Under the pieces are notes generated by a model. It made no database searches and was not told the origin of the DNA. It saw only the letters and a program-made list of their open reading frames with translations. 64,000 nucleotides of DNA from Planctomycetota bacterium (GTDB taxonomy: Bacteria > Planctomycetota > Phycisphaerae > WQYP01), in the NCBI GenBank assembly GCA_021819825.1, contig JAKAEZ010000005.1, positions 6,542-70,541 of the forward strand. Reading direction: 5' to 3'. Position numbers and translations under genes: made by a program. Positions 1 to 50,485 of the stretch are shown in pieces; positions within the stretch are counted from its first letter, which is position 1, and every line of letters begins with the position of its first letter.

Positions 1-783
1 AACTTGATCTGCTTGAATAGGGGACATAAATTCTACGGTCAACGATTCACAATGAGCGCGCAAAACCGGCACGCGAACGCAGGTGGCAGAAATACGAATA
101 TCGGGGTCACCAAAGATTTTTCGCGTTTCTTTGACCATTTTTATTTCTTCTTCATTGTAGCCCGTATGCAAATCAACAGACGCGTTGTGGCTAAACACGT
201 TAAACGCGTACGGGTGGGGCAGCACCGTGGGGGGGTACTCCTGGCCATTGAGAGCTGCTTTTGTGGCGTCCAGCAATTCCTGCATGGCTGCCGCCCCGGC
301 ACCGCTGGCGGCCTGATAGGTAGCCGCAATAATCCGGGTGATTCGGTTAATTTTATATAGCGGCCACAACGGTACAATGGCAATGATCGTCGAGCAATTG
401 GGGTTGGCAATGATACCTTTATGGTTGTTGATCTCCTGTGGATTAATTTCCGGAACAATCAACGGCACATCCGGGTTCATCCGAAACGCCGAACTGTTAT
501 CTATGACTACCGCACCGGCTTTGGCGGCAATTGGACCAAATTTCTTGCTAAGCGAACCACCGGCGGAGAATAATGCAATATCCACGCCGGAAAAGCTCTG
601 CTCGGTGAGTTCATGCACCGCTAAGGATTGCCCGCGAAAGGCCAGGTGTTTTCCAGCACTGCGCGCGGAAGCAAAGAGCCGCAATTCAGCCAACGGAAAA
701 TTACGTTCCTCCAAGCATCGAAGAAACTCTACACCCACCGCACCGGTGGCACCGACAATAGCAACAATAGGAGGATGATTCAT
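1..783 (-). CDS. asd: Aspartate-semialdehyde dehydrogenase, N-terminal 261 codons (3' end runs off the window start)
   Basis: Absent from the ORF track because it is open at the window edge. My reverse-complement translation from the ATG (complement of 781-783) reads MNHPPIVAIVGATGAVGVEFLRCLEERNFPLAELRLFASARSAGK...FGPIAAKAGAVVIDNSSAFR...IIANPNCSTIIAIVPLWPL. This shows a GxxGxxG dinucleotide fold and the NPNCST active-site Cys motif typical of Asd. Confidence 0.9.
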   Translation of the reverse strand, partial: MNHPPIVAIVGATGAVGVEFLRCLEERNFPLAELRLFASARSAGKHLAFRGQSLAVHELTEQSFSGVDIALFSAGGSLSKKFGPIAAKAGAVVIDNSSAFRMNPDVPLIVPEINPQEINNHKGIIANPNCSTIIAIVPLWPLYKINRITRIIAATYQAASGAGAAAMQELLDATKAALNGQEYPPTVLPHPYAFNVFSHNASVDLHTGYNEEEIKMVKETRKIFGDPDIRISATCVRVPVLRAHCESLTVEFMSPIQADQV

Positions 784-947
784 GGCTTTCCTGTTAATCA
801 CGGTTCCATCTAACAACGCCCATTTCAACTTGAAAGGGCTTTTTCCGGAGGGATTATACTACAGGAGCACAGCAGATGGCACATCCAGCGACAAAGTGAC
901 GTTATTACTGCCCGTGACGGCGTATGGATTTGCTCCCATTTAGCGCA

Positions 948-975
948 ATTTAACATAACATATATTATCGGACCC
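948..975 (-). other. dif-like XerC/XerD recombination site (left prophage boundary)
   Basis: The complement reads GGGTCCGATAA-TATATG-TTATGTTAAAT. E. coli dif (from memory) is GGTGCGCATAA-TGTATA-TTATGTTAAAT. XerD arm 11/11, centre 4/6, XerC arm 7/11 with the inner ATAA conserved; 22/28 overall. Confidence 0.7.
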
Positions 976-1095
976 TGTAAATAACACCGGATCACGGGAA
1001 TTAGGCACCCAACGCATCAACCATCTCACGGGCAAACGCTACCACGCGGCCAATGCGTTCACGCCCGATAAGATCGCCGCGGCAAGGAACAAACC

Positions 1096-1293
1096 ATGCA
1101 AACCATCGCAACGACCTATTGCACACAATGCGGATACCTGTACTACGGAGAAGACCGCAAGGCAGCAATCAAGGCCAACATCAACCACGGAAGACAGCCC
1201 CAAAACAACAGCCACACCATCGTTACAGAAATCGCCCGCAAGGACCCAACCCGAGAACTCAAACCGATCACAATATTGTCCGCAAACCCCTGA
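1096..1293 (+). CDS. Small CxxC...H...H putative zinc-binding protein (paralog group with 9283-9483 and 9480-9686)
   Basis: 65 aa, ...TYCTQCGYLYYGEDRKAAIKANINHGRQPQNNSH... It has the same CxxC-(18-19 aa)-His-cluster layout as the two tandem mini-proteins downstream of the secretin-like gene. Confidence 0.5.
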   Translation: MQTIATTYCTQCGYLYYGEDRKAAIKANINHGRQPQNNSHTIVTEIARKDPTRELKPITILSANP

Positions 1294-1339
1294 ACAAAAC
1301 GGACCGACCAACAACCACGGGCACCTATTTTACAAGTGA

Positions 1340-1666
1340 ATGGAACCCAAGATGATGACCTATTGCATAAGAGGAAACGTCACCAACACCAAACGATGGA
1401 TGGACAAAGAAGGAACGCCCGGAACACTCGTTACCATCAGAGACGACAACCAGACCATGACCATCGCAACGACCAACGCACCACCAGAAATAGGCGACTT
1501 AATCGAAGCAATAGGCGGCCTGCGCGTAAAAAGCTACAAGGGATACACAAACACCGTCTTAACCCGGGCAACCATCCAAATTCTCATACCAGCAAAACAA
1601 TCCGAAACCGAAGGCGGAGAAACCCCGGCAACGCGCCGGGAACCGACCCAAGGACGGACAAATTAA
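1340..1666 (+). CDS. Hypothetical phage protein (ssDNA-binding role possible by position and size only)
   Basis: 108-aa ORF in the only frame with ordinary amino-acid composition. It lies just upstream of rep, where inoviruses keep small DNA-binding proteins. No motif recognised. Confidence 0.4.
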   Translation: MEPKMMTYCIRGNVTNTKRWMDKEGTPGTLVTIRDDNQTMTIATTNAPPEIGDLIEAIGGLRVKSYKGYTNTVLTRATIQILIPAKQSETEGGETPATRREPTQGRTN

Positions 1667-1678
1667 GGAGCCAGGACA

Positions 1679-1966
1679 ATGGCATCAGAGTACACATACC
1701 ACGGAATCCTGCAGGGAATCAAACCGGCCCTCGACTACAAGGGAAACCCGGAACCCGACTGCCAAGAGGTCATCATCAAGATCGACAGCGGCTTAGCCAC
1801 CGGCAGGGCAACCGGCGACTTCCCAGACATCGCGAAACACTTCGGCAAGGAAATCCGGTTAACCGGCCCAATCACCGTGAAATACTCCGAAAAGATGCGC
1901 AGAGCCTTTACGGACCTCGGCCCCGGCAAAATCACCGCCGCAACCAACCCCGGAAACCTCAAATAA
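1679..1966 (+). CDS. Hypothetical phage protein
   Basis: 95-aa ORF with an AAGGAG Shine-Dalgarno sequence 8 nt upstream of the ATG. Composition looks globular. No motif recognised. Confidence 0.5.
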   Translation: MASEYTYHGILQGIKPALDYKGNPEPDCQEVIIKIDSGLATGRATGDFPDIAKHFGKEIRLTGPITVKYSEKMRRAFTDLGPGKITAATNPGNLK

Positions 1967-1982
1967 GAAAACCTTTTCAAAC

Positions 1983-2038
1983 GGGGCCGGGCGAACGGCC
2001 GACGCGTCTCATAAACCCAGGCCAAGTACCCCGGCCCC
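1983..2038. other. GC-rich long-range hairpin upstream of rep (candidate origin or packaging signal)
   Basis: GGGGCCGGG (1983-1991) pairs with CCCGGCCCC (2030-2038). The loop contains the palindrome GACGCGTC. It is a conspicuous G-containing island in an otherwise G/T-poor strand, in the 90-nt gap before the rep ATG. Confidence 0.3.
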
Positions 2039-2056
2039 TAAGTAAAAAGAGACCAA

Positions 2057-3376
2057 ATGTACGTAGACAACCCACAACCCGAAACTGAAAAGCCGACCAC
2101 GCTATGGCGCGGAATCGACACGATCAAAATCGGCATCGGAGGAACCAACACCAACACCGCCCTACCCACACTACGCGAACTACAAGAACAAGTCCGGCAA
2201 TCCCCAGCCCAGTACCAATACGACTTAGCCGGCAAAGTATGGGCAATCCTCCCATACGGACGCAAAAAATACCGATACGGCCTGCAACACGGGCAACTAA
2301 GCCTATTCTTTTCCGAGGAAGAATACTCCCCGGAAACACCGAACATAATGGCCGAGGCCTACCCGTCCGCGATCGCCGGACGGAACGTACACGAACTGCA
2401 AAACGACATAAACATAGCCCTCGCAGAACTCGGAGTAGATCCCAACTGGACAAAAGTATCCGAACTACACCTAACCACCGATACACACGCCCCGGACAAA
2501 CTGGCCATCACCGACATCTACGACACCAACCACAACCCGCTATGGATCAGCAAGGCACGCAAAGTACAAGCAATCACGGACCACCAGCAGGACGTAGAAC
2601 GGCTAATAACACGCGGGGCAACCCTGCAAAGCCTCAGATACGGCGGATCACTGCTGCACGTCCGAATCTACAACAAGCAGGAGGAACTCAAAATACACCC
2701 CGACAAGCAATGGGAAATGACCCTATGGAACAACCCCTACGCGCAACACGTAACGCGCGTAGAATTCCAAATCCGCAGGGAAAAACTGAAATGCTTCCGC
2801 GTAGACGGAACCCAGAACCTACCAGGACAAATAGCAGGAATCTGGAAATACCTAACCGAGGAATGGTTCACATTAAACGAACGCAACCCCAACGGAAAGA
2901 ACCGCGACGCCACCCCATCCAAATTCTGGGAAACTGTACAAGGCGCATGGAAAACCGCAACACCACGGAAACCATACCCGAAGCCACAAGCCAACGCGGC
3001 CCAACGGCTTTCCCAAGCCTACGGAAACCTAATATCGGCCGCCGCCATACTGGACATGCACCAAGAGGCCCAGATAACCGACCTATTCAACTTATGGAAA
3101 CAAACCCACGGACAAGACTGGCCGGAACACGTCCGCCAACGCCAGGACAAAATACAAACGCTGCAAGGCAGGATACGCATCAGAGATCAAGCCCTCGAAC
3201 TCGAATTCGAGGAACACAATCGCGCACCGACTACCCCCATACTCGAAAAAACCAATGAAAATAAGCCCGAAATATCGCTATTTGCGCACTTAGAAGGGGG
3301 GATGCTATTAACCATCCCCAAAGCAGGCGGCGGCGTCTGCGCCGCCGCCGCCGCCAATGCCCAATGGGAAAGATAA
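2057..3376 (+). CDS. Rolling-circle replication initiator, Rep_trans (RstA/pII-like) family
   Basis: 439 aa. ...SLLHVRIYNKQEELK... resembles the R-x-Y-[DN]-K motif of Rep_trans proteins (pT181 RepC, CTXphi RstA). Size and position fit a filamentous-phage initiator. Confidence 0.7.
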   Translation: MYVDNPQPETEKPTTLWRGIDTIKIGIGGTNTNTALPTLRELQEQVRQSPAQYQYDLAGKVWAILPYGRKKYRYGLQHGQLSLFFSEEEYSPETPNIMAEAYPSAIAGRNVHELQNDINIALAELGVDPNWTKVSELHLTTDTHAPDKLAITDIYDTNHNPLWISKARKVQAITDHQQDVERLITRGATLQSLRYGGSLLHVRIYNKQEELKIHPDKQWEMTLWNNPYAQHVTRVEFQIRREKLKCFRVDGTQNLPGQIAGIWKYLTEEWFTLNERNPNGKNRDATPSKFWETVQGAWKTATPRKPYPKPQANAAQRLSQAYGNLISAAAILDMHQEAQITDLFNLWKQTHGQDWPEHVRQRQDKIQTLQGRIRIRDQALELEFEEHNRAPTTPILEKTNENKPEISLFAHLEGGMLLTIPKAGGGVCAAAAANAQWER

Positions 3377-3401
3377 CAAAAGAAACAAACAGGAAAAGAA
3401 G

Positions 3402-3662
3402 ATGAGGACGAAAACATGGATATACGTAATCGCGACAATCACTATTACCACGCTGGCATCGCAATCGCACGCATCGCCCGCACCCGTCACAATCTCCCAA
3501 CCGACAACAAGCCCAGTACCGGTATACCAGACGGAACCGGCCTACGACCCAGCCCTCGACGCATGGAGTGTAGTACAGGGATACGGCGACGCATTTTGCT
3601 TATGGGGCTTTACTTGGTCAGTATCGTATGTCTTGCGACTGCTTATCCGAACACTGTCATAG
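3402..3662 (+). CDS. Small exported protein (signal peptide plus hydrophobic-basic C-terminus), capsid or membrane component candidate
   Basis: MRTKTWIYVIATITITTLASQSHA/SPAP... looks like a signal peptide. The C-terminus is ...AFCLWGFTWSVSYVLRLLIRTLS. Start chosen at the internal ATG 3402 of track ORF 3357-3662. Confidence 0.45.
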   Translation: MRTKTWIYVIATITITTLASQSHASPAPVTISQPTTSPVPVYQTEPAYDPALDAWSVVQGYGDAFCLWGFTWSVSYVLRLLIRTLS

Positions 3663-3847
3663 CGTCAAACGCACCCACGACAATGCCAAATGGGGCAACA
3701 ATGACCGACAGCACGAACGACCCAAGCATAGTACTAAGTATCTGGAATGACACCGACCCGTACCTAATCAATCTGGCAGAAGCCATAGCCGCCCTCTGGG
3801 GCGCTTGGTGGGCATGGACGAAATTAACCGACACATTGACCGCCTAA
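3602..3847 (+). CDS. Coat-protein-like small protein (start uncertain: 3602 or 3683)
   Basis: This is the C-terminal part of track ORF 3416-3847. It has a signal-like segment MGLYLVSIVCLATAYPNTVIA, an acidic segment (TDSTNDPS...DTDPY), then the hydrophobic helix AEAIAALWGAWWAWTKL. It shares the WWAW motif with 3875-4210. It overlaps the 3' end of 3402-3662 in another frame. Confidence 0.35.
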   Translation: MGLYLVSIVCLATAYPNTVIASNAPTTMPNGATMTDSTNDPSIVLSIWNDTDPYLINLAEAIAALWGAWWAWTKLTDTLTA

Positions 3848-3874
3848 GCCGGGCCGTCAGAAAGAGAGGCCACG

Positions 3875-4210
3875 ATGTTGAAATCGTTGCTCCAAAACGC
3901 CACATCACGAGGCGTCAAGATCGTGAAGAACACTTACACCGCCCTCGGAAAAACCGGCCGCAAAATGGCCGCGCTGATCTTAGCCGGCGGAACCGTAACC
4001 GCGCTTGCCAACGTAGCGCACGCGAGCACTTCCGGCAGCACCACACCATCGACCGCTGCCGTGCAGTACTCCACCTTCTACAGCATGTACGACGTGCTTA
4101 ACAGCATATTGAACATCCTGTACCCCGTTGTGGTGCCCATCCTCATAGCCGGAAGCGCGATTTTCGTCGCGTGGTGGGCTTGGCACCGCCTCAAGGGAGC
4201 TGTCTCCTAA
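3875..4210 (+). CDS. Major-coat-protein-like (pVIII-like) protein
   Basis: 111 aa. Signal-like MAALILAGGTVTALANVAHA, a Ser/Thr-rich segment, the hydrophobic helix ILYPVVVPILIAGSAIFVAWWAW and the basic tail HRLKGAVS. AGAGAGG lies 5 nt upstream of the ATG. Confidence 0.55.
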   Translation: MLKSLLQNATSRGVKIVKNTYTALGKTGRKMAALILAGGTVTALANVAHASTSGSTTPSTAAVQYSTFYSMYDVLNSILNILYPVVVPILIAGSAIFVAWWAWHRLKGAVS

Positions 4211-4313
4211 GACAGAAGCCCCTTACAGCAACTGTGATCCGGCCGTGCGGCTGGCAGTAGCTTAATCACCCAAGACGGCCCGGCTTAGACGGCCAGCGCG
4301 AAAGGAAAGGACC

Positions 4314-6620
4314 ATGAAACATGTTACACGCAATCAGCTACATCGCAGGAATCCTATTATGGAAGTTCACCATGTACGACACTTGGTTAGGCCCAATGCT
4401 GGACCCGGAAAAATGGCGCAGGCCCCGAAGGTAGCCCTGCACTCCAACGGAGCCAACTTTCTCTACGCCGCCGCCCTCGGAACCGCGATACTGGCCGCCG
4501 CAGCCACCAGCGCAGGCGCGTACACCGCAGGATCAGCGGATTACGGACAAGTAATAAGCCAACTCCAACAAATGAACAGCGAAACCAGCCCAATGGACCA
4601 AGCAACGCTAACCTACCAAGTAGCCCAAGAAAACAACCTGCAAACCATCGAAAGCACCCTAAAGACCGCAACACAAACAAACCTAAACGGCACCCCAATG
4701 TCAATGTTAGCCCAAACAGTCGGCATCGGATCCTACAACCCGCCGACGTCGGCAATGACCTTCTCACCGACATACTACAGCCACGGAGGAACGGCGGCAC
4801 AAGGATTCCAAAGCGTATGGCAATGGATCCCAGGAACCCAAAGCCCCCGAAGCGTCTACGTAGACGGACAAGGATACTCCGTATTCCAAAGCCCCAACGG
4901 GAACAGCTACTTCGACTGGAACCCCTACAACGCGGCCGCCGTCAACGTGGAAACCACCGGCGACGCCAACTGGAACACAGCCAGCGCAACGACCGGAACA
5001 CCGTACAGCGTCTTCCGAGACAACTTCGGAAGCTCAGTGTTCACCAACACCAACGGACAAGCCTACCTATCCGCAGACTATCCCGTGCCACACGTGGCCA
5101 ACACAACTGCCGTTGGATCGGCCTTCACAACCGGCGTCGGCCTACAAACGTCGGTATTCCAATGGCAAGAGTACAACGCCAATACCGGAACCGGTTACGG
5201 CACAACCGAAGATAGCTCCGGATACCCAGAACCCATGTTCTCCGTGTTCACAGCAGGAAGCGGACCAAAATCAGGAAACGGAGCCCACGGCATAGGAAGC
5301 GTATTTGTCACCGACGACACACAAAACGGCAATGTAGACAATAGCGTATTTCTCGACCAATACGGAAACAGCTACCTAGACGACATAGAATCGGCACTAG
5401 CGCTGAGCACACCGACGTACCAAAGCATCTACGGCAACGCCAGCAACGGAAACACCTACGCATACAACCAATCCGGCCAACTCGAATGGATATCGCCATG
5501 GCAGCAAGGAGCCCAAACATACGCACAAACCAACGAACCCATCGGAATCGCCCAAATACTCGCCATAGCAGACGGCGAAGCCCCCGACTACAACCCAGCC
5601 ACCGACACGATAATGTTCACCCCATCCTACCAATACCTAACCAGCGCCAGCACGATGCAAAACCCACTAGAAACCATACAGCAATGGTACGCTGGACCCA
5701 ACGCCGGAGGCTGGCAATACAGCAACGAATTCGCCGCCGCTTTCTTTAATCCACCGGCAAGCGGGGCAACAACGCTTGTCCCTTATTTGTCCGCTTTTGG
5801 AGGCTGGCAAGACTCAATCGCCTACCAAGACAGCTTAACCACCAACGAGAACAACACCACCAGCGCAATAAACACGGCAGAAGGACAGTTGGACACCACT
5901 TTCAACAACTACGCGCCAACAACCACGCCCAGCCCGCAAACACCCGCAACCGGCTTACAAGGCGGCTGGTCCACATCATGGATACTGCCCATCAACGCAA
6001 TATCCACCACAATAGGGACAATCACCGACAGTGACACCGCCACCGAAGGAAACAACGCCGGATACGCCCTCGACAACAACTCGCACAATGTTGTAGGAGC
6101 CATACAAGACCTCATAAGCCGCATCCAACAGGGATCAGGATACAACCCGCCATCCAACCTACTGCAATACACCAAAACAACAAACTTAGCCCCGGAATAC
6201 ACCGGCGACGGAGGCGACAGCCCCAACGGCACAAGCAGCCAATACGCGACACTCGACGCGGTCGACGATGGAGAATTCAGCTTCCTTGCCGGAGCCGTTT
6301 ACGGAATGCAATGGTTCCGAGCCAATACGCCATGGCTGGCCTACATTTTCGGATTTTTCTTAACGCTCTTCACCGTACTGAAGGCATGGCAATTAATCTA
6401 CTGGGGAATCAACGGTGGAAGCTTCCCGCTCATATTCAACCCTCATAACCGCGTCCCCGGCAGCGCCGACTTAACGCCCGGAATAGCCAACATCGCCGGA
6501 ACATCCACGGCCAACGTCAAACCCGACTTTGCCACCACACAAGAACAATGGGAAACCCAGGACAAACTACGAAGCGGCCGCACGTTCACCAAGGCCGCAG
6601 ACGGGACGGAAGTATCATGA
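4314..6620 (+). CDS. Large adsorption/minor-coat (pIII-like) protein
   Basis: 768 aa. N-terminal hydrophobic segment FLYAAALGTAILAAAATSAGA; an N/T/S/G/Y/Q-rich body with recurring SVF motifs; a C-terminal membrane anchor WLAYIFGFFLTLFTVLKAW. GAAAGGAAAGGA ribosome-binding site. An alternative start at 4413 (MAQAPK...) would give a conventional signal peptide. Confidence 0.55.
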   Translation: MKHVTRNQLHRRNPIMEVHHVRHLVRPNAGPGKMAQAPKVALHSNGANFLYAAALGTAILAAAATSAGAYTAGSADYGQVISQLQQMNSETSPMDQATLTYQVAQENNLQTIESTLKTATQTNLNGTPMSMLAQTVGIGSYNPPTSAMTFSPTYYSHGGTAAQGFQSVWQWIPGTQSPRSVYVDGQGYSVFQSPNGNSYFDWNPYNAAAVNVETTGDANWNTASATTGTPYSVFRDNFGSSVFTNTNGQAYLSADYPVPHVANTTAVGSAFTTGVGLQTSVFQWQEYNANTGTGYGTTEDSSGYPEPMFSVFTAGSGPKSGNGAHGIGSVFVTDDTQNGNVDNSVFLDQYGNSYLDDIESALALSTPTYQSIYGNASNGNTYAYNQSGQLEWISPWQQGAQTYAQTNEPIGIAQILAIADGEAPDYNPATDTIMFTPSYQYLTSASTMQNPLETIQQWYAGPNAGGWQYSNEFAAAFFNPPASGATTLVPYLSAFGGWQDSIAYQDSLTTNENNTTSAINTAEGQLDTTFNNYAPTTTPSPQTPATGLQGGWSTSWILPINAISTTIGTITDSDTATEGNNAGYALDNNSHNVVGAIQDLISRIQQGSGYNPPSNLLQYTKTTNLAPEYTGDGGDSPNGTSSQYATLDAVDDGEFSFLAGAVYGMQWFRANTPWLAYIFGFFLTLFTVLKAWQLIYWGINGGSFPLIFNPHNRVPGSADLTPGIANIAGTSTANVKPDFATTQEQWETQDKLRSGRTFTKAADGTEVS

Positions 6621-6985
6621 ACGACGTACTGCAAATCGGAGATTTTGCCGCCAGACTCTTCTGGCATTTTGTTGTAGCCGCCCTTGGCCTCATTCAACAA
6701 CTCATAATATTTGTCACCCAAACCGGCTGGCAATTCCTAACCCAACTCCTCCAGGACGCCGCCAATATCTGCGGACTGGGAAACGCGATCCAACCCATCC
6801 AAGGGGCAATGCTGCCCTACTGGAACGATTGCAGCCTTATTGTCAACTGGATGGCAAGCACTTTCGTGGGCAACGGAACCCTGCAACTCTGCCTAAGCAT
6901 CATCATCAACGCACTGGCCGTCGCGCTGATCCTGCGAGGCGTATTCACCATCTACAGCAAGATACCAGTAGCAGGGAGAAACTAA
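6617..6985 (+). CDS. pVI-like integral membrane protein
   Basis: 122 aa starting at an ATG that overlaps the upstream stop (ATGA at 6617-6620). Hydrophobic segments FWHFVVAALGLIQQLIIFV and LCLSIIINALAVALILRGVF. It sits between the pIII-like and Zot-like genes, as in inoviruses. Confidence 0.45.
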   Translation: MNDVLQIGDFAARLFWHFVVAALGLIQQLIIFVTQTGWQFLTQLLQDAANICGLGNAIQPIQGAMLPYWNDCSLIVNWMASTFVGNGTLQLCLSIIINALAVALILRGVFTIYSKIPVAGRN

Positions 6986-7086
6986 TGATATTCGGATACA
7001 TCGTAATATTCATATTCTGCGTACTACCCACCCTACTTATGCTCGGAATATGCATCATGAACACATGGGAAGAATGGAAAAAGTAA
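6985..7086 (+). CDS. 33-aa hydrophobic peptide (pVII/pIX-like by size)
   Basis: MIFGYIVIFIFCVLPTLLMLGICIMNTWEEWKK. Its ATG overlaps the upstream stop (TAATG). It is too short for the ORF track except as the tail of spurious ORF 6529-7086. Confidence 0.35.
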   Translation: MIFGYIVIFIFCVLPTLLMLGICIMNTWEEWKK

Positions 7087-7089
7087 ACC

Positions 7090-8292
7090 ATGGACGGAAG
7101 CCTTACCATCATCGACGGCGAACCCGGGAACGGCAAAACCCTGCAAACCGTAAGGCTTATGCTGGACTCGGCCCGCAGACACCGCCACATCACAACCAAC
7201 GTGGCACTGAAGGCCGGCTTCATAAGAACCGCCAAGAAAATCTATCCCGACATCAAAATAATCAAACCCACCGCGGCCGAAGCCAAACTATTCTGGCAAT
7301 ACATACCGCCCGGAACCGATATCTACATCGACGAAGCCCATTTACTGTGGAACAGCAACTTTTGGAAGGAAAATCGGCAGAAAGATTTCCTTGAATACAT
7401 CAGCCAATTCCGCAAGGAAGGCGACACCATCTATCTATTGGCCCAGCACTACGAAAATCTTGACCTATTCATACGCCAACGCGCGTCAACACTGTGGACC
7501 TGCCGAGTACTCCGCTGGCCCCGCTGGATACCCATTAAATCACTGAAAACCGATACCGGCGGAAAACCGATACTCTTCTCGGTCAACGCATGGACCACCC
7601 GGGAAGGAGAACGGCACACCCGTAAATTCTTTCTACCCAGAATCTACACGCCCGGAATGTGCCAAGGTCTGTACCAGATGTACGACACCCGAGGAACCGT
7701 CGAAACATCCACAACCGGATACCGACACACCCGCCCAACATGGGCCCAATTCATGCAGCAGCAGGAGCCGAAAACCATGGCAACCATCCTAACCGAGGAC
7801 AACCCGACCGGAGAAGCCCAACCCGCCGCGGCAGCCCCGGCCACGAACCCAACCGTAGTCATCAACAACCAAGCCCCGACCGAACCACAGAAAAAGAGCC
7901 GACTAAAACGATACGCGACGATCACCGCAATCATACTTGCCGCCGGATTCATAGCCACGCAATATCAAAAAGACCACCCCAAAAAGAAAGAAACCCAACG
8001 GGCCAGCACAACGCGGATAGCACGCACAGGACCACCCAAACGACAACGGATCACCTACTACGGAACCATCGGAAACCAAGTCATTGTAAGCCAGAAAGGA
8101 CAATATGGACTCTGGACAATCGGGAAAAGCCAGGACGGATACGGTATCGCTATGGCCAATTCTAACGGTATTTTTCTGCGCGACCCTACTGGGAGGCTGC
8201 ACTACCGGGCTTGGTGGACTCCGCCGACCCATCACAATCACCATGACGCAACAAAGCCCAAACCCGCTACCGGGCCACTGGCCAAGTTTTGA
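7090..8292 (+). CDS. Zot/pI-family filamentous-phage assembly NTPase
   Basis: MDGSLTIIDGEPGNGKT...HITTNV parallels the CTXphi Zot N-terminus (...HHGAPGSYKT...HIITNV, recalled from memory). Walker B IYIDEAH. A single TM (YATITAIILAAGFIATQY) is followed by a ~100-aa periplasmic tail, as in pI. Confidence 0.85.
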   Translation: MDGSLTIIDGEPGNGKTLQTVRLMLDSARRHRHITTNVALKAGFIRTAKKIYPDIKIIKPTAAEAKLFWQYIPPGTDIYIDEAHLLWNSNFWKENRQKDFLEYISQFRKEGDTIYLLAQHYENLDLFIRQRASTLWTCRVLRWPRWIPIKSLKTDTGGKPILFSVNAWTTREGERHTRKFFLPRIYTPGMCQGLYQMYDTRGTVETSTTGYRHTRPTWAQFMQQQEPKTMATILTEDNPTGEAQPAAAAPATNPTVVINNQAPTEPQKKSRLKRYATITAIILAAGFIATQYQKDHPKKKETQRASTTRIARTGPPKRQRITYYGTIGNQVIVSQKGQYGLWTIGKSQDGYGIAMANSNGIFLRDPTGRLHYRAWWTPPTHHNHHDATKPKPATGPLAKF

Positions 8293-20454: not shown

Positions 20455-20717
20455 CTAGTGCCCTGTTCCGGTCATAATTACGGGTTGACGGAGGGCCAAG
20501 GGGTTGTGGGCGCGAAGCGAGGAGGATTGCGTATGGATGCATACGTTGACGGCGAGCGACAAAGCCCGCGGCCCCTTGGCCCCCGCCCGAAGGGTTGGCC
20601 TTAAACCGGCCATCTGCGGCGTCGCGTCGGCTCAAGGGGTTTACGAACCCGGTTCTCGCCGCATCTGGCCGGTTTAAGGCCAATCAACCCGTAATTATGG
20701 CTGGAACAGGGCACTAG
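20455..20717 (+). ncRNA. Unclassified structured RNA element, copy 1 (263 nt)
   Basis: 34-bp closing helix 20455-20488/20684-20717, with two G-U pairs only if the + strand is read. Inner helices: 20490-20503/20572-20584, 20506-20511/20564-20569, hairpin 20530-20545, 20597-20611/20667-20681, 20615-20621/20657-20663, and hairpin 20637-20650 with a UACG loop. The helices covary with copy 2. Confidence 0.75.
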
Positions 20718-20951
20718 CTTTCGGATTGTTTTTTCACCAATTTCGCCTTTTCTTCGTTTGCAAATTCCACACAAAACAATACATATATAGGGCCATTGGG
20801 GCAAATGCGCGTTTCCTCAATCGCGTGTCCTGTCCAGAGACATTTTAGTGTTTTTGATATTTCCTGGGCCACAACGTACAGCGGTCAGGAACGGTTGCAA
20901 CTTTTTTTACCTGTGTTACAGTATTGATCGAAGTCAATACAGGAGATATTC

Positions 20952-49883: not shown

Positions 49884-50030
49884 TGAATGCTGCGGCAGCA
49901 GTTGGACCGGGGGCCAGTCTCCACGGTTGGGTCCGAGCAAGCAAGGCCTGCCACATTGCGGCAATCAACACCGCTCCGGAGCCACTTGGTACTGGAAAGC
50001 GTGAACGGCAATCCGAGACCCGGTGGATCT

Positions 50031-50304
50031 CTAGTGCTCTGTCACGCCTAAATATTAGGATTGACGGAGGGCCAGGGGGCTGTGGGCGCGAAGCGAGGAG
50101 GATTGTGTATGGGAACATACATTGACGACAAGCGACAAAGCCCACGGCCCCCTGGCCCCCGCCCCGCGGGGTTGGCCGCAAACGCCCCATCTGCGGCGTC
50201 GCAGCAGCTCAAGGGGTCTACGGACCGGGTTTTCGCCGCTGCTTCTTGCATCTGGGGCCTTTGCGGCCAATCAATCCTAATATTTAGGCGTGACAGAGCA
50301 CTAG
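50031..50304 (+). ncRNA. Unclassified structured RNA element, copy 2 (274 nt)
   Basis: Perfect 34-bp closing helix 50031-50064/50271-50304. Same helix architecture and conserved single-stranded blocks as copy 1, with a GGAA (GNRA) loop and a UACG loop. 13 of 34 closing-helix positions differ from copy 1, and every one is compensated. Confidence 0.75.
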
Positions 50305-50485
50305 ACGGATAGACCGAGTTGGCTCGGCCCTAATGGTTGTTAAAAGGAGCCGCTGCCGGGCGCCTATGTTGATTTATTGACACCGGGCGCTTTGCCGCCA
50401 AAGCTCCGAACCACAGTGCTTTCCGAGACACAACCGGTATGAACGTAAACGGCCCGATGGACTAAATCTGGAACCCGGATCGTTC

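Follow-up and report, generated by a model that had tools for sequence, protein, structure and literature searches.

Inoviruses that carry no integrase and reside at the chromosomal dif site are well known from Vibrio, Xanthomonas, Ralstonia, Yersinia and Neisseria. In the CTXφ class, the single strand contains two inverted attP sites, which pair to form a hairpin. The inovirus VGJφ of Vibrio cholerae has a single double-stranded attP without centre homology to dif on the XerD side; catalysis is by XerC only, and the integration is reversible in principle (PMC4246890). The satellite phage TLCφ of V. cholerae, which has no integrase, has a single double-stranded attP with a XerC arm and centre homologous to dif and a degenerate XerD arm, and the integrated element has a good dif at one end and, at the other, a site whose XerD arm is poor (PMC4246890, PMC9226527). 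The innermost positions 1 and 5 of the XerD arm are reported to be crucial for the TLCφ attP (PMC9226527). The gonococcal genetic island (GGI) of Neisseria lies between the host dif and a site with a homologous XerC arm and centre and a divergent XerD arm (PMC5357621). This divergent arm is thought to prevent FtsK-driven excision, and the island has no XafT-like gene (PMC5357621, PMC6744903). XacF1, a Xanthomonas inovirus of the Cf1c/φLf group, integrates at the host dif via XerC/D, and its attP lies within a putative regulator gene (ORF12) that is split on integration (PMC5666396). The Xanthomonas dif phages carry DUF3653 proteins, a family reported only in gamma- and beta-proteobacteria (PMC6744903). 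For Planctomycetota, a comprehensive dif prediction published in 2011 failed (PMC3025954), and our literature searches found no later description of a dif site in Phycisphaerae or Planctomycetota.

Here we describe a prophage within 64 kb of planctomycete DNA (the window, by which we mean the whole stretch analysed). The reading that we favour, with a probability of about 85%, is that a 10.4-kb inovirus of a Phycisphaerae host, in the form of a double-stranded circle with a single attP, has recombined via Xer with the host dif between asd and an epimerase gene. The left host flank (1..783, minus strand) is, by translation, the 5' part of asd, encoding aspartate-semialdehyde dehydrogenase; the full 339-aa gene exhibits PF01118 and PF02774 in the related contigs L131 and L137. 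The right flank (11515..12492, minus strand, GTG start at 12492) encodes a 325-aa NAD-dependent epimerase/dehydratase identified with Pfam.

The prophage body between them (976..11365, plus strand) is 10,390 bp long, corresponding to a circle of 10,418 bp with one att copy. It stands out by its polymorphic presence and its skewed composition (GC skew -0.20 and AT skew +0.37, against about 0 in the flanks). Plausible prophage genes are all on the plus strand, and in contig L137, where the identical prophage has 16 called genes, these lie on one strand. The pI/Zot morphogenesis ATPase, the hallmark gene of inoviruses, is found at 7090..8292 (plus strand) with matches to PF05707 (E = 2.1e-12, above the gathering score), phrog_197 and phrog_1675. 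The ATPase, the small genome of 10.4 kb and the location of the genes on one strand identify the element as an inovirus. A putative rolling-circle replication initiator of 439 aa (2057..3376, plus strand) exhibits a weak match to Rep_trans (E = 2.5e-4, below the gathering score) and a match to a PHROG endonuclease (1e-6). The candidate major coat protein (3875..4210, plus strand, 111 aa) matches no Pfam or PHROG family and was picked for its sequence features: a signal peptide ending in AHA, one C-terminal hydrophobic helix and a basic tail, a combination typical of inovirus major coat proteins. By its position and size, the large structural protein of 768 aa encoded at 4314..6620 (plus strand), equally without a Pfam or PHROG match, is possibly a pIII-like adsorption protein. 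The length of this ORF varies among near-identical prophages (735, 748, 753 and 768 aa in the window, L128, L129, L137 and L138), a pattern in keeping with diversifying pressure on a receptor-binding protein. A small CxxC (zinc-ribbon-like) protein of 65 aa is encoded at 1096..1293 (plus strand); it is 61% identical to its homologue in the related locus L008 (tblastn), and its frame is kept in the related phages L139 and L140.

One further gene (9686..10375, plus strand) encodes a TraX-like membrane protein that matches PF05857 (E = 7e-24), to which the F-pilin acetylase also belongs. This cargo is unusual in a filamentous phage, and is present in all five related inoviruses (in L139 at 7191-7955, in L140 at 12650-13963, in L142 at 14664-15449 and in L144 at 12197-12904, in addition to the window).

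No integrase, resolvase or transposase was found in Pfam and PHROG scans of the element's ORFs, several of which match no family, and the precomputed Pfam matches of the identical prophage in L137, which cover its 16 called genes, include no recombinase either. The earlier note had likewise described the element as lacking an integrase. The element thus has no recognisable recombinase of its own, several ORFs being without any family. A megablast search of the element against 50,697 phage records gave no match, and a search of IMG/VR with the Rep protein returned no relative.

Two dif-like sites flank the prophage. The plus strand at 948-975 reads ATTTAACATAA-CATATA-TTATCGGACCC (complement GGGTCCGATAA-TATATG-TTATGTTAAAT), and its XerD arm is identical at 11/11 positions to that of E. 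coli dif (GGTGCGCATAATGTATATTATGTTAAAT; PMC3025954). At 11366-11393 the same strand reads ATTCGCCAGAA-CATATA-TTATAGGACGT. The centre of this second site is the same, its XerC arm has 8/11 positions in common with the XerC arm of 948-975, and its XerD arm matches at 7/11. The two sites are in direct orientation on either side of the 10,390-bp prophage. Taking the reconstructed native dif described below as the reference, we gave a score to all 28-mers on either strand of the window, with 20 shuffles as a control. The arm matches are 19/22 at 948-975, the best score of the window, and 18/22 at 11366-11393, each with a 6/6 centre. Since the next-best 28-mer (15/22) is no better than shuffled sequence (maxima of 14-16 in 20 shuffles), a chance match is excluded, and the window is confirmed to contain no dif-like 28-mers beyond these two. 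In the 64 kb there is one occurrence of the exact 28-mer, where 0 are expected.

If attP and dif exchange strands at the centre, the sites left on either side of the prophage must be reciprocal hybrids. We therefore fixed a prediction before the test: the native dif should combine the XerD arm and centre of 948-975 with the XerC arm of 11366-11393. This gives ATTTAACATAACATATATTATAGGACGT, i.e. ATTTAACATAA-CATATA-TTATAGGACGT, for the native dif and ATTCGCCAGAA-CATATA-TTATCGGACCC for attP, with …ATTCGCCAGAACATATATTATCGGACCCTGTAAATAAC… as the predicted attP junction of the circular phage. Read on the minus strand, the predicted order is attR (host XerC arm, centre, phage XerD arm), prophage, attL (phage XerC arm, centre, host XerD arm). 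Contigs were picked by an exact match to the epimerase protein of the right flank, which is present on 10 contigs. In the prophage-free contig L131 (GCA_021844265.1), from the same species, the epimerase gene is followed directly by asd, and exactly the predicted 28-mer lies between them. On both sides of it, the sequence of L131 equals that of the window (786-958 and 11383-11500) except for a single SNP in the right flank; L131 has the left flank and 948-964 in common with the window, and 965-975 is replaced by TTATAGGACGT. L134 is a second empty site in the same species. Other contigs of the species, from several samples, carry the prophage at the same spot between asd and the epimerase gene (L128, L129, L130, L132, L133, L137 and L138). 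The element is a polymorphic insertion in a single 28-bp site, and the crossover falls within the 12-bp core AACATATATTAT common to both partners.

The site at 948-975 (minus strand) is thus attL, a hybrid dif made of the host XerD arm (948-958), the centre (959-964) and a phage XerC arm (965-975). Its counterpart attR (11366..11393, minus strand) consists of the degenerate phage XerD arm (11366-11376, 7/11), the centre (11377-11382) and the host XerC arm (11383-11393). The earlier note had recognised the near-canonical dif-like 28-mer, with its E. coli-identical XerD arm, and the second copy with the same centre, a similar XerC arm and a degenerate XerD arm; both descriptions hold. Its identification of 948-975 as the dif site is right as far as dif-likeness goes, but this is not the native site, the empty site of L131 revealing that the XerC arm TTATCGGACCC is derived from the phage. 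The IMEX-type Xer integration at dif that the note had proposed for this integrase-less prophage is strongly supported by the predicted 28-mer at the same empty site. The insertion lies exactly in the host chromosomal dif, as seen from the empty sites of L131, L134 and the related genome L121, and the two direct dif-like sites are reciprocal attP/dif hybrids, as they are in the related prophages L140, L142 and L144.

The host XerC arm in attR is itself variable within the species. It reads TTATAGGACGT in the window, L128, L137 and L138, and TTATCGGACGT in L129, L130, L132 and L133; SNPs in the next few bases of the flank are linked to the arm variant (tacatat, taaatat or tatatat; cf. window 11383-11405). 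These variants could reflect a dif polymorphism of the host or independent integrations. Integration of the tRNA type was also considered and rejected, no tRNA or Rfam family being found near the junctions.

The native 28-bp site, ACGTCCTATAA-TATATG-TTATGTTAAAT on the complement, has the 11-6-11 layout of a chromosomal dif, with arms that form partial inverted repeats. The XerD arm is the E. coli one, and the XerC arm agrees with B. subtilis dif at 9/11 positions. Among the matches listed (L008-L127), each fetched 8-kb locus has a single copy of the motif ATTTAACATAA-N6-TTATNGGAC, and the more than 120 genomes concerned span Bacteroidota, Sphingomonadales, Acidobacteriota, Planctomycetota, Elusimicrobiota and others. 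Among these matches, the E. coli-identical XerD arm is combined with a XerC arm TTAT[A/C/G]GGAC, and the commonest centres are TATTAA, TATAAA and TATATA. The motif is a widespread type of dif. It is very unlikely, in our view, that the 28-mer is something other than the chromosomal dif, namely an attachment site for another recombinase (a single Xer-like enzyme, an unrecognised integrase or a Rep-mediated activity) with a convergent or ancestral likeness to dif. Such a reading would accommodate the lack of xerC and xerD among the 33 host ORFs scanned, the several phage proteins that match no Pfam or PHROG family, and the failure of the 2011 survey to predict dif in Planctomycetes (PMC3025954). 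It is opposed by the 11-6-11 layout with its E. coli-type XerD arm and B. subtilis-like XerC arm, by the single occurrence of the same motif per locus across many phyla, by the mapping of the crossover to a core that contains the centre, and by the lack of any recombinase family in the phage.

Relatives of the window organism exhibit the same neighbourhood. L121, L063 and L008/L140 are MAGs labelled Phycisphaerae/Phycisphaeraceae or Planctomycetota. In L121, asd, dif and the epimerase gene follow each other without a prophage, and the dif (3456-3483) has the centre CATGCA as opposed to CATATA. This mismatch would block recombination with CATATA-type attPs and may amount to a natural resistance. 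L063 has exactly the 28-mer predicted as native for the window. In L008/L140 a related prophage adjoins asd, with a Rep protein 69% identical to the 439-aa putative Rep of the window phage and an asd gene 79% identical at the DNA level. A search with the pI protein returned only 14 homologues, all from metagenomes or MAGs. More distant prophages are found beside asd in L142/L143 and L144/L145 (pI 48-49% identical); across L140, L142 and L144, pI is 44-49% identical to that of the window phage. All three have a canonical XerD arm on the asd side and, at the far site, a degenerate XerD arm with the same CATATA centre. A free relative is L139, a 10,440-bp contig with a pI 72% identical and one intact attP, ACCGTACACAA-CATATA-TTATGGGACGT; it is a circular genome, since its Rep ORF reads from the end into the start with a terminal overlap of about 18 nt. 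By analogy with L139, we infer an episomal form for the window phage. The exact attP 28-mer of the window phage was not found in IMG/VR, nor was the attP pattern found as a free junction in JGI metagenome contigs.

The anatomy of attP is the same in all five phages: a XerD arm matching at 5-8/11 positions, a centre matching at 6/6 and a XerC arm matching at 8-10/11 (7/11, 6/6 and 8/11, respectively, in the window phage). The degeneracy of the XerD arm is concentrated in its outer six bases, and the innermost bases 1 and 5 (T....G) are kept in four of the five phages. This anatomy is of the TLCφ/GGI kind and not of the VGJφ kind. The window phage resembles TLCφ in its single double-stranded attP with a good XerC arm and centre and a poor XerD arm, in its lack of an integrase, and in being bordered, once integrated, by a good dif at one end and by a site with a poor XerD arm at the other (PMC4246890, PMC9226527). 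It differs in that TLCφ is a satellite that takes the XafT/DUF3653 route, whereas the element described here is a complete inovirus that brings its own genes for morphogenesis, has a planctomycete host and gives no match to XafT. No DUF3653/XafT protein was detected at permissive E-values (up to 1 or 10) among 18 small and otherwise unassigned ORFs and two attP-spanning proteins, nor among the six large ORFs scanned at E<=0.01, so that an activator of the TLCφ type would be lacking. The GGI, which is flanked in the same manner (PMC5357621), is in contrast a 57-kb island with a type IV secretion system and not a phage.

The VGJ-type mechanism that the earlier note considered compatible with the identical centres fits this anatomy less well. 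Such a route relies on XerC alone: it swaps one pair of strands between dif and the double-stranded attP, and the Holliday junction that results is then resolved by replication. The window phage is, like VGJφ, an inovirus with a single double-stranded attP, with no inverted partner, and with an integration reversible in principle (PMC4246890). Both its XerC arm and the XerC side of its centre share homology with dif, and an exchange initiated by XerC requires no more (PMC4246890). The feature that defines VGJφ, a non-homologous centre beside the XerD arm that leaves catalysis to XerC only (PMC4246890), is nevertheless absent: the centre is identical at 6/6 positions in the five phages, in attL, in attR and in the empty site. 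Moreover, a degenerate XerD arm (5-8/11) has been described for TLCφ and the GGI, and not for VGJφ (PMC4246890, PMC5357621). We thus regard a VGJφ-type route as rather unlikely. A route of the CTXφ type, in which the phage single strand would fold two inverted attPs into a hairpin for an irreversible integration by XerC, suits an inovirus with a single-stranded DNA genome, but no second or inverted dif-like site exists on either strand of the prophage or of the circular L139, the next-best scores being at chance level; we give it next to no probability.

We return to the favoured reading, Xer recombination between dif and a double-stranded circle. The circular phage form would bear the single attP GGGTCCGATAA-TATATG-TTCTGGCGAAT; that this attP recombined with the host dif is shown by attL and attR, the products of the crossover. 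Because the phage has no recombinase of its own, the catalyst is presumably the XerC/XerD pair of the host, by which IMEX elements are integrated; against this counts that no xerC, xerD or ftsK gene is among the 33 host ORFs scanned. A fully homologous 6-bp centre would allow both strand exchanges to be completed, and the integration should thus be reversible in principle. With its canonical XerD arm, and a XerC arm that stays inside the range of natural variation, attL is probably the working dif of the cell now, and a target for further IMEXs. In all five related phages attP keeps a weakened XerD arm as part of its design. This arm probably limits FtsK-driven excision, by analogy with TLCφ and the GGI; by the same analogy, it may require a phage-encoded or other activator of XerD.

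The attP of the window phage lies inside a gene for a ribbon-helix-helix (RHH, CopG-like) regulator. The 5' part of the split gene (11182..11388, plus strand) encodes 68 aa in the prophage and ends at a TAG codon (11386-11388) supplied by the host XerC arm. The displaced 3' part (965..1106, plus strand) continues the ORF from 11182 in the circular phage, and the motif QRIN..TGKRY.A..AFTP is encoded at about 1009-1106. Circular junctions were rebuilt for the window phage, L140, L142 and L144, and the real junction was read in L139. In all five phages attP is crossed by one long ORF, always in the same frame. The five aligned proteins exhibit an N-terminal RHH domain and a downstream motif N..TGKR..A..AF, of which N..GKR..A..AF is invariant; a second invariant segment, HIL.D, is encoded by the centre and the XerC arm. 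The L139 orthologue matches RHH_1 with 23.5 bits (cut-off 20.5). The attP-gene region of the window phage exhibits no blastn-level DNA similarity to that of L139, and the conservation of the gene is therefore at the protein level. Owing to its overlap with the conserved 65-aa gene in another frame, the tail of the ORF past about position 1106 is probably not all coding.

Integration thus splits the regulator gene and would leave a truncated protein of 68 aa. A similar arrangement exists in XacF1, which also resides at the host dif and has its attP within a putative regulator gene (PMC5666396). The Xanthomonas phages differ in carrying DUF3653 proteins (PMC6744903), none of which was detected in the window phage, and the XacF1 group has no detectable sequence relationship to it (megablast, 50,697 phage records). 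Truncation of the RHH regulator could make gene regulation depend on whether the phage is integrated or episomal, and one may speculate that the protein takes part in deciding on lysogeny or in controlling Xer. The phage family might even use an Xer activation or control factor other than DUF3653. The best candidate would be the RHH protein, full-length only in the episome and truncated on integration, acting as a sensor of the integration state that controls XerD-first recombination and lysogeny, in a phylum whose cell division is atypical; this stronger form of the idea we consider distinctly unlikely.

The GC skew is +0.004 over the 7.5-kb left flank (recovered from L137) and -0.010 over the 52.6-kb right flank, values of terminus-like sign and negligible size. 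No informative oligomer or gene-strand bias was found, and searches for KOPS-like octamers (GGGNAGGG, GAGAAGGG) and skewed oligomers gave nothing usable. The 33 host ORFs scanned include no xerC, xerD or ftsK. [quoted passage not shown] That the window spans the replication terminus, as the earlier note had supposed, would follow from this correlation, and is supported neither way by the present data.

The locus provides an evidence-backed dif site for the Phycisphaerae and Planctomycetota, validated by a natural insertion polymorphism, the same logic as was applied to the Legionellales (PMC9765430). It also extends the Xer-exploiting filamentous phages beyond the Proteobacteria. New are the host phylum, a small and previously undescribed phage family at an asd-adjacent dif, and the design with a weak XerD arm without DUF3653. 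This combination of a good XerC arm, an identical centre and a weak XerD arm, in phages without the only known activator family, gives a concrete starting point for finding other Xer activators. In genome annotation, the site points to a mobile-element hotspot beside asd and, by the general dif rule only, a probable terminus region.

Apart from the prophage, a nested-palindrome element about 270 nt long occurs twice in the window (20455-20720 and 50029-50305), the two cores being about 88% alike. The terminal inverted repeats of 34-36 nt differ between the copies, each copy being still self-complementary. The predicted RNA fold of 50028-50306 has an energy of -189 kcal/mol (z = -17.5 against shuffles), and the element matches no Rfam family. 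The copy at 20455 is located at the exact point where the 88-kb contig L006 loses colinearity with the window. The element is possibly MITE-like and situated at a rearrangement breakpoint.
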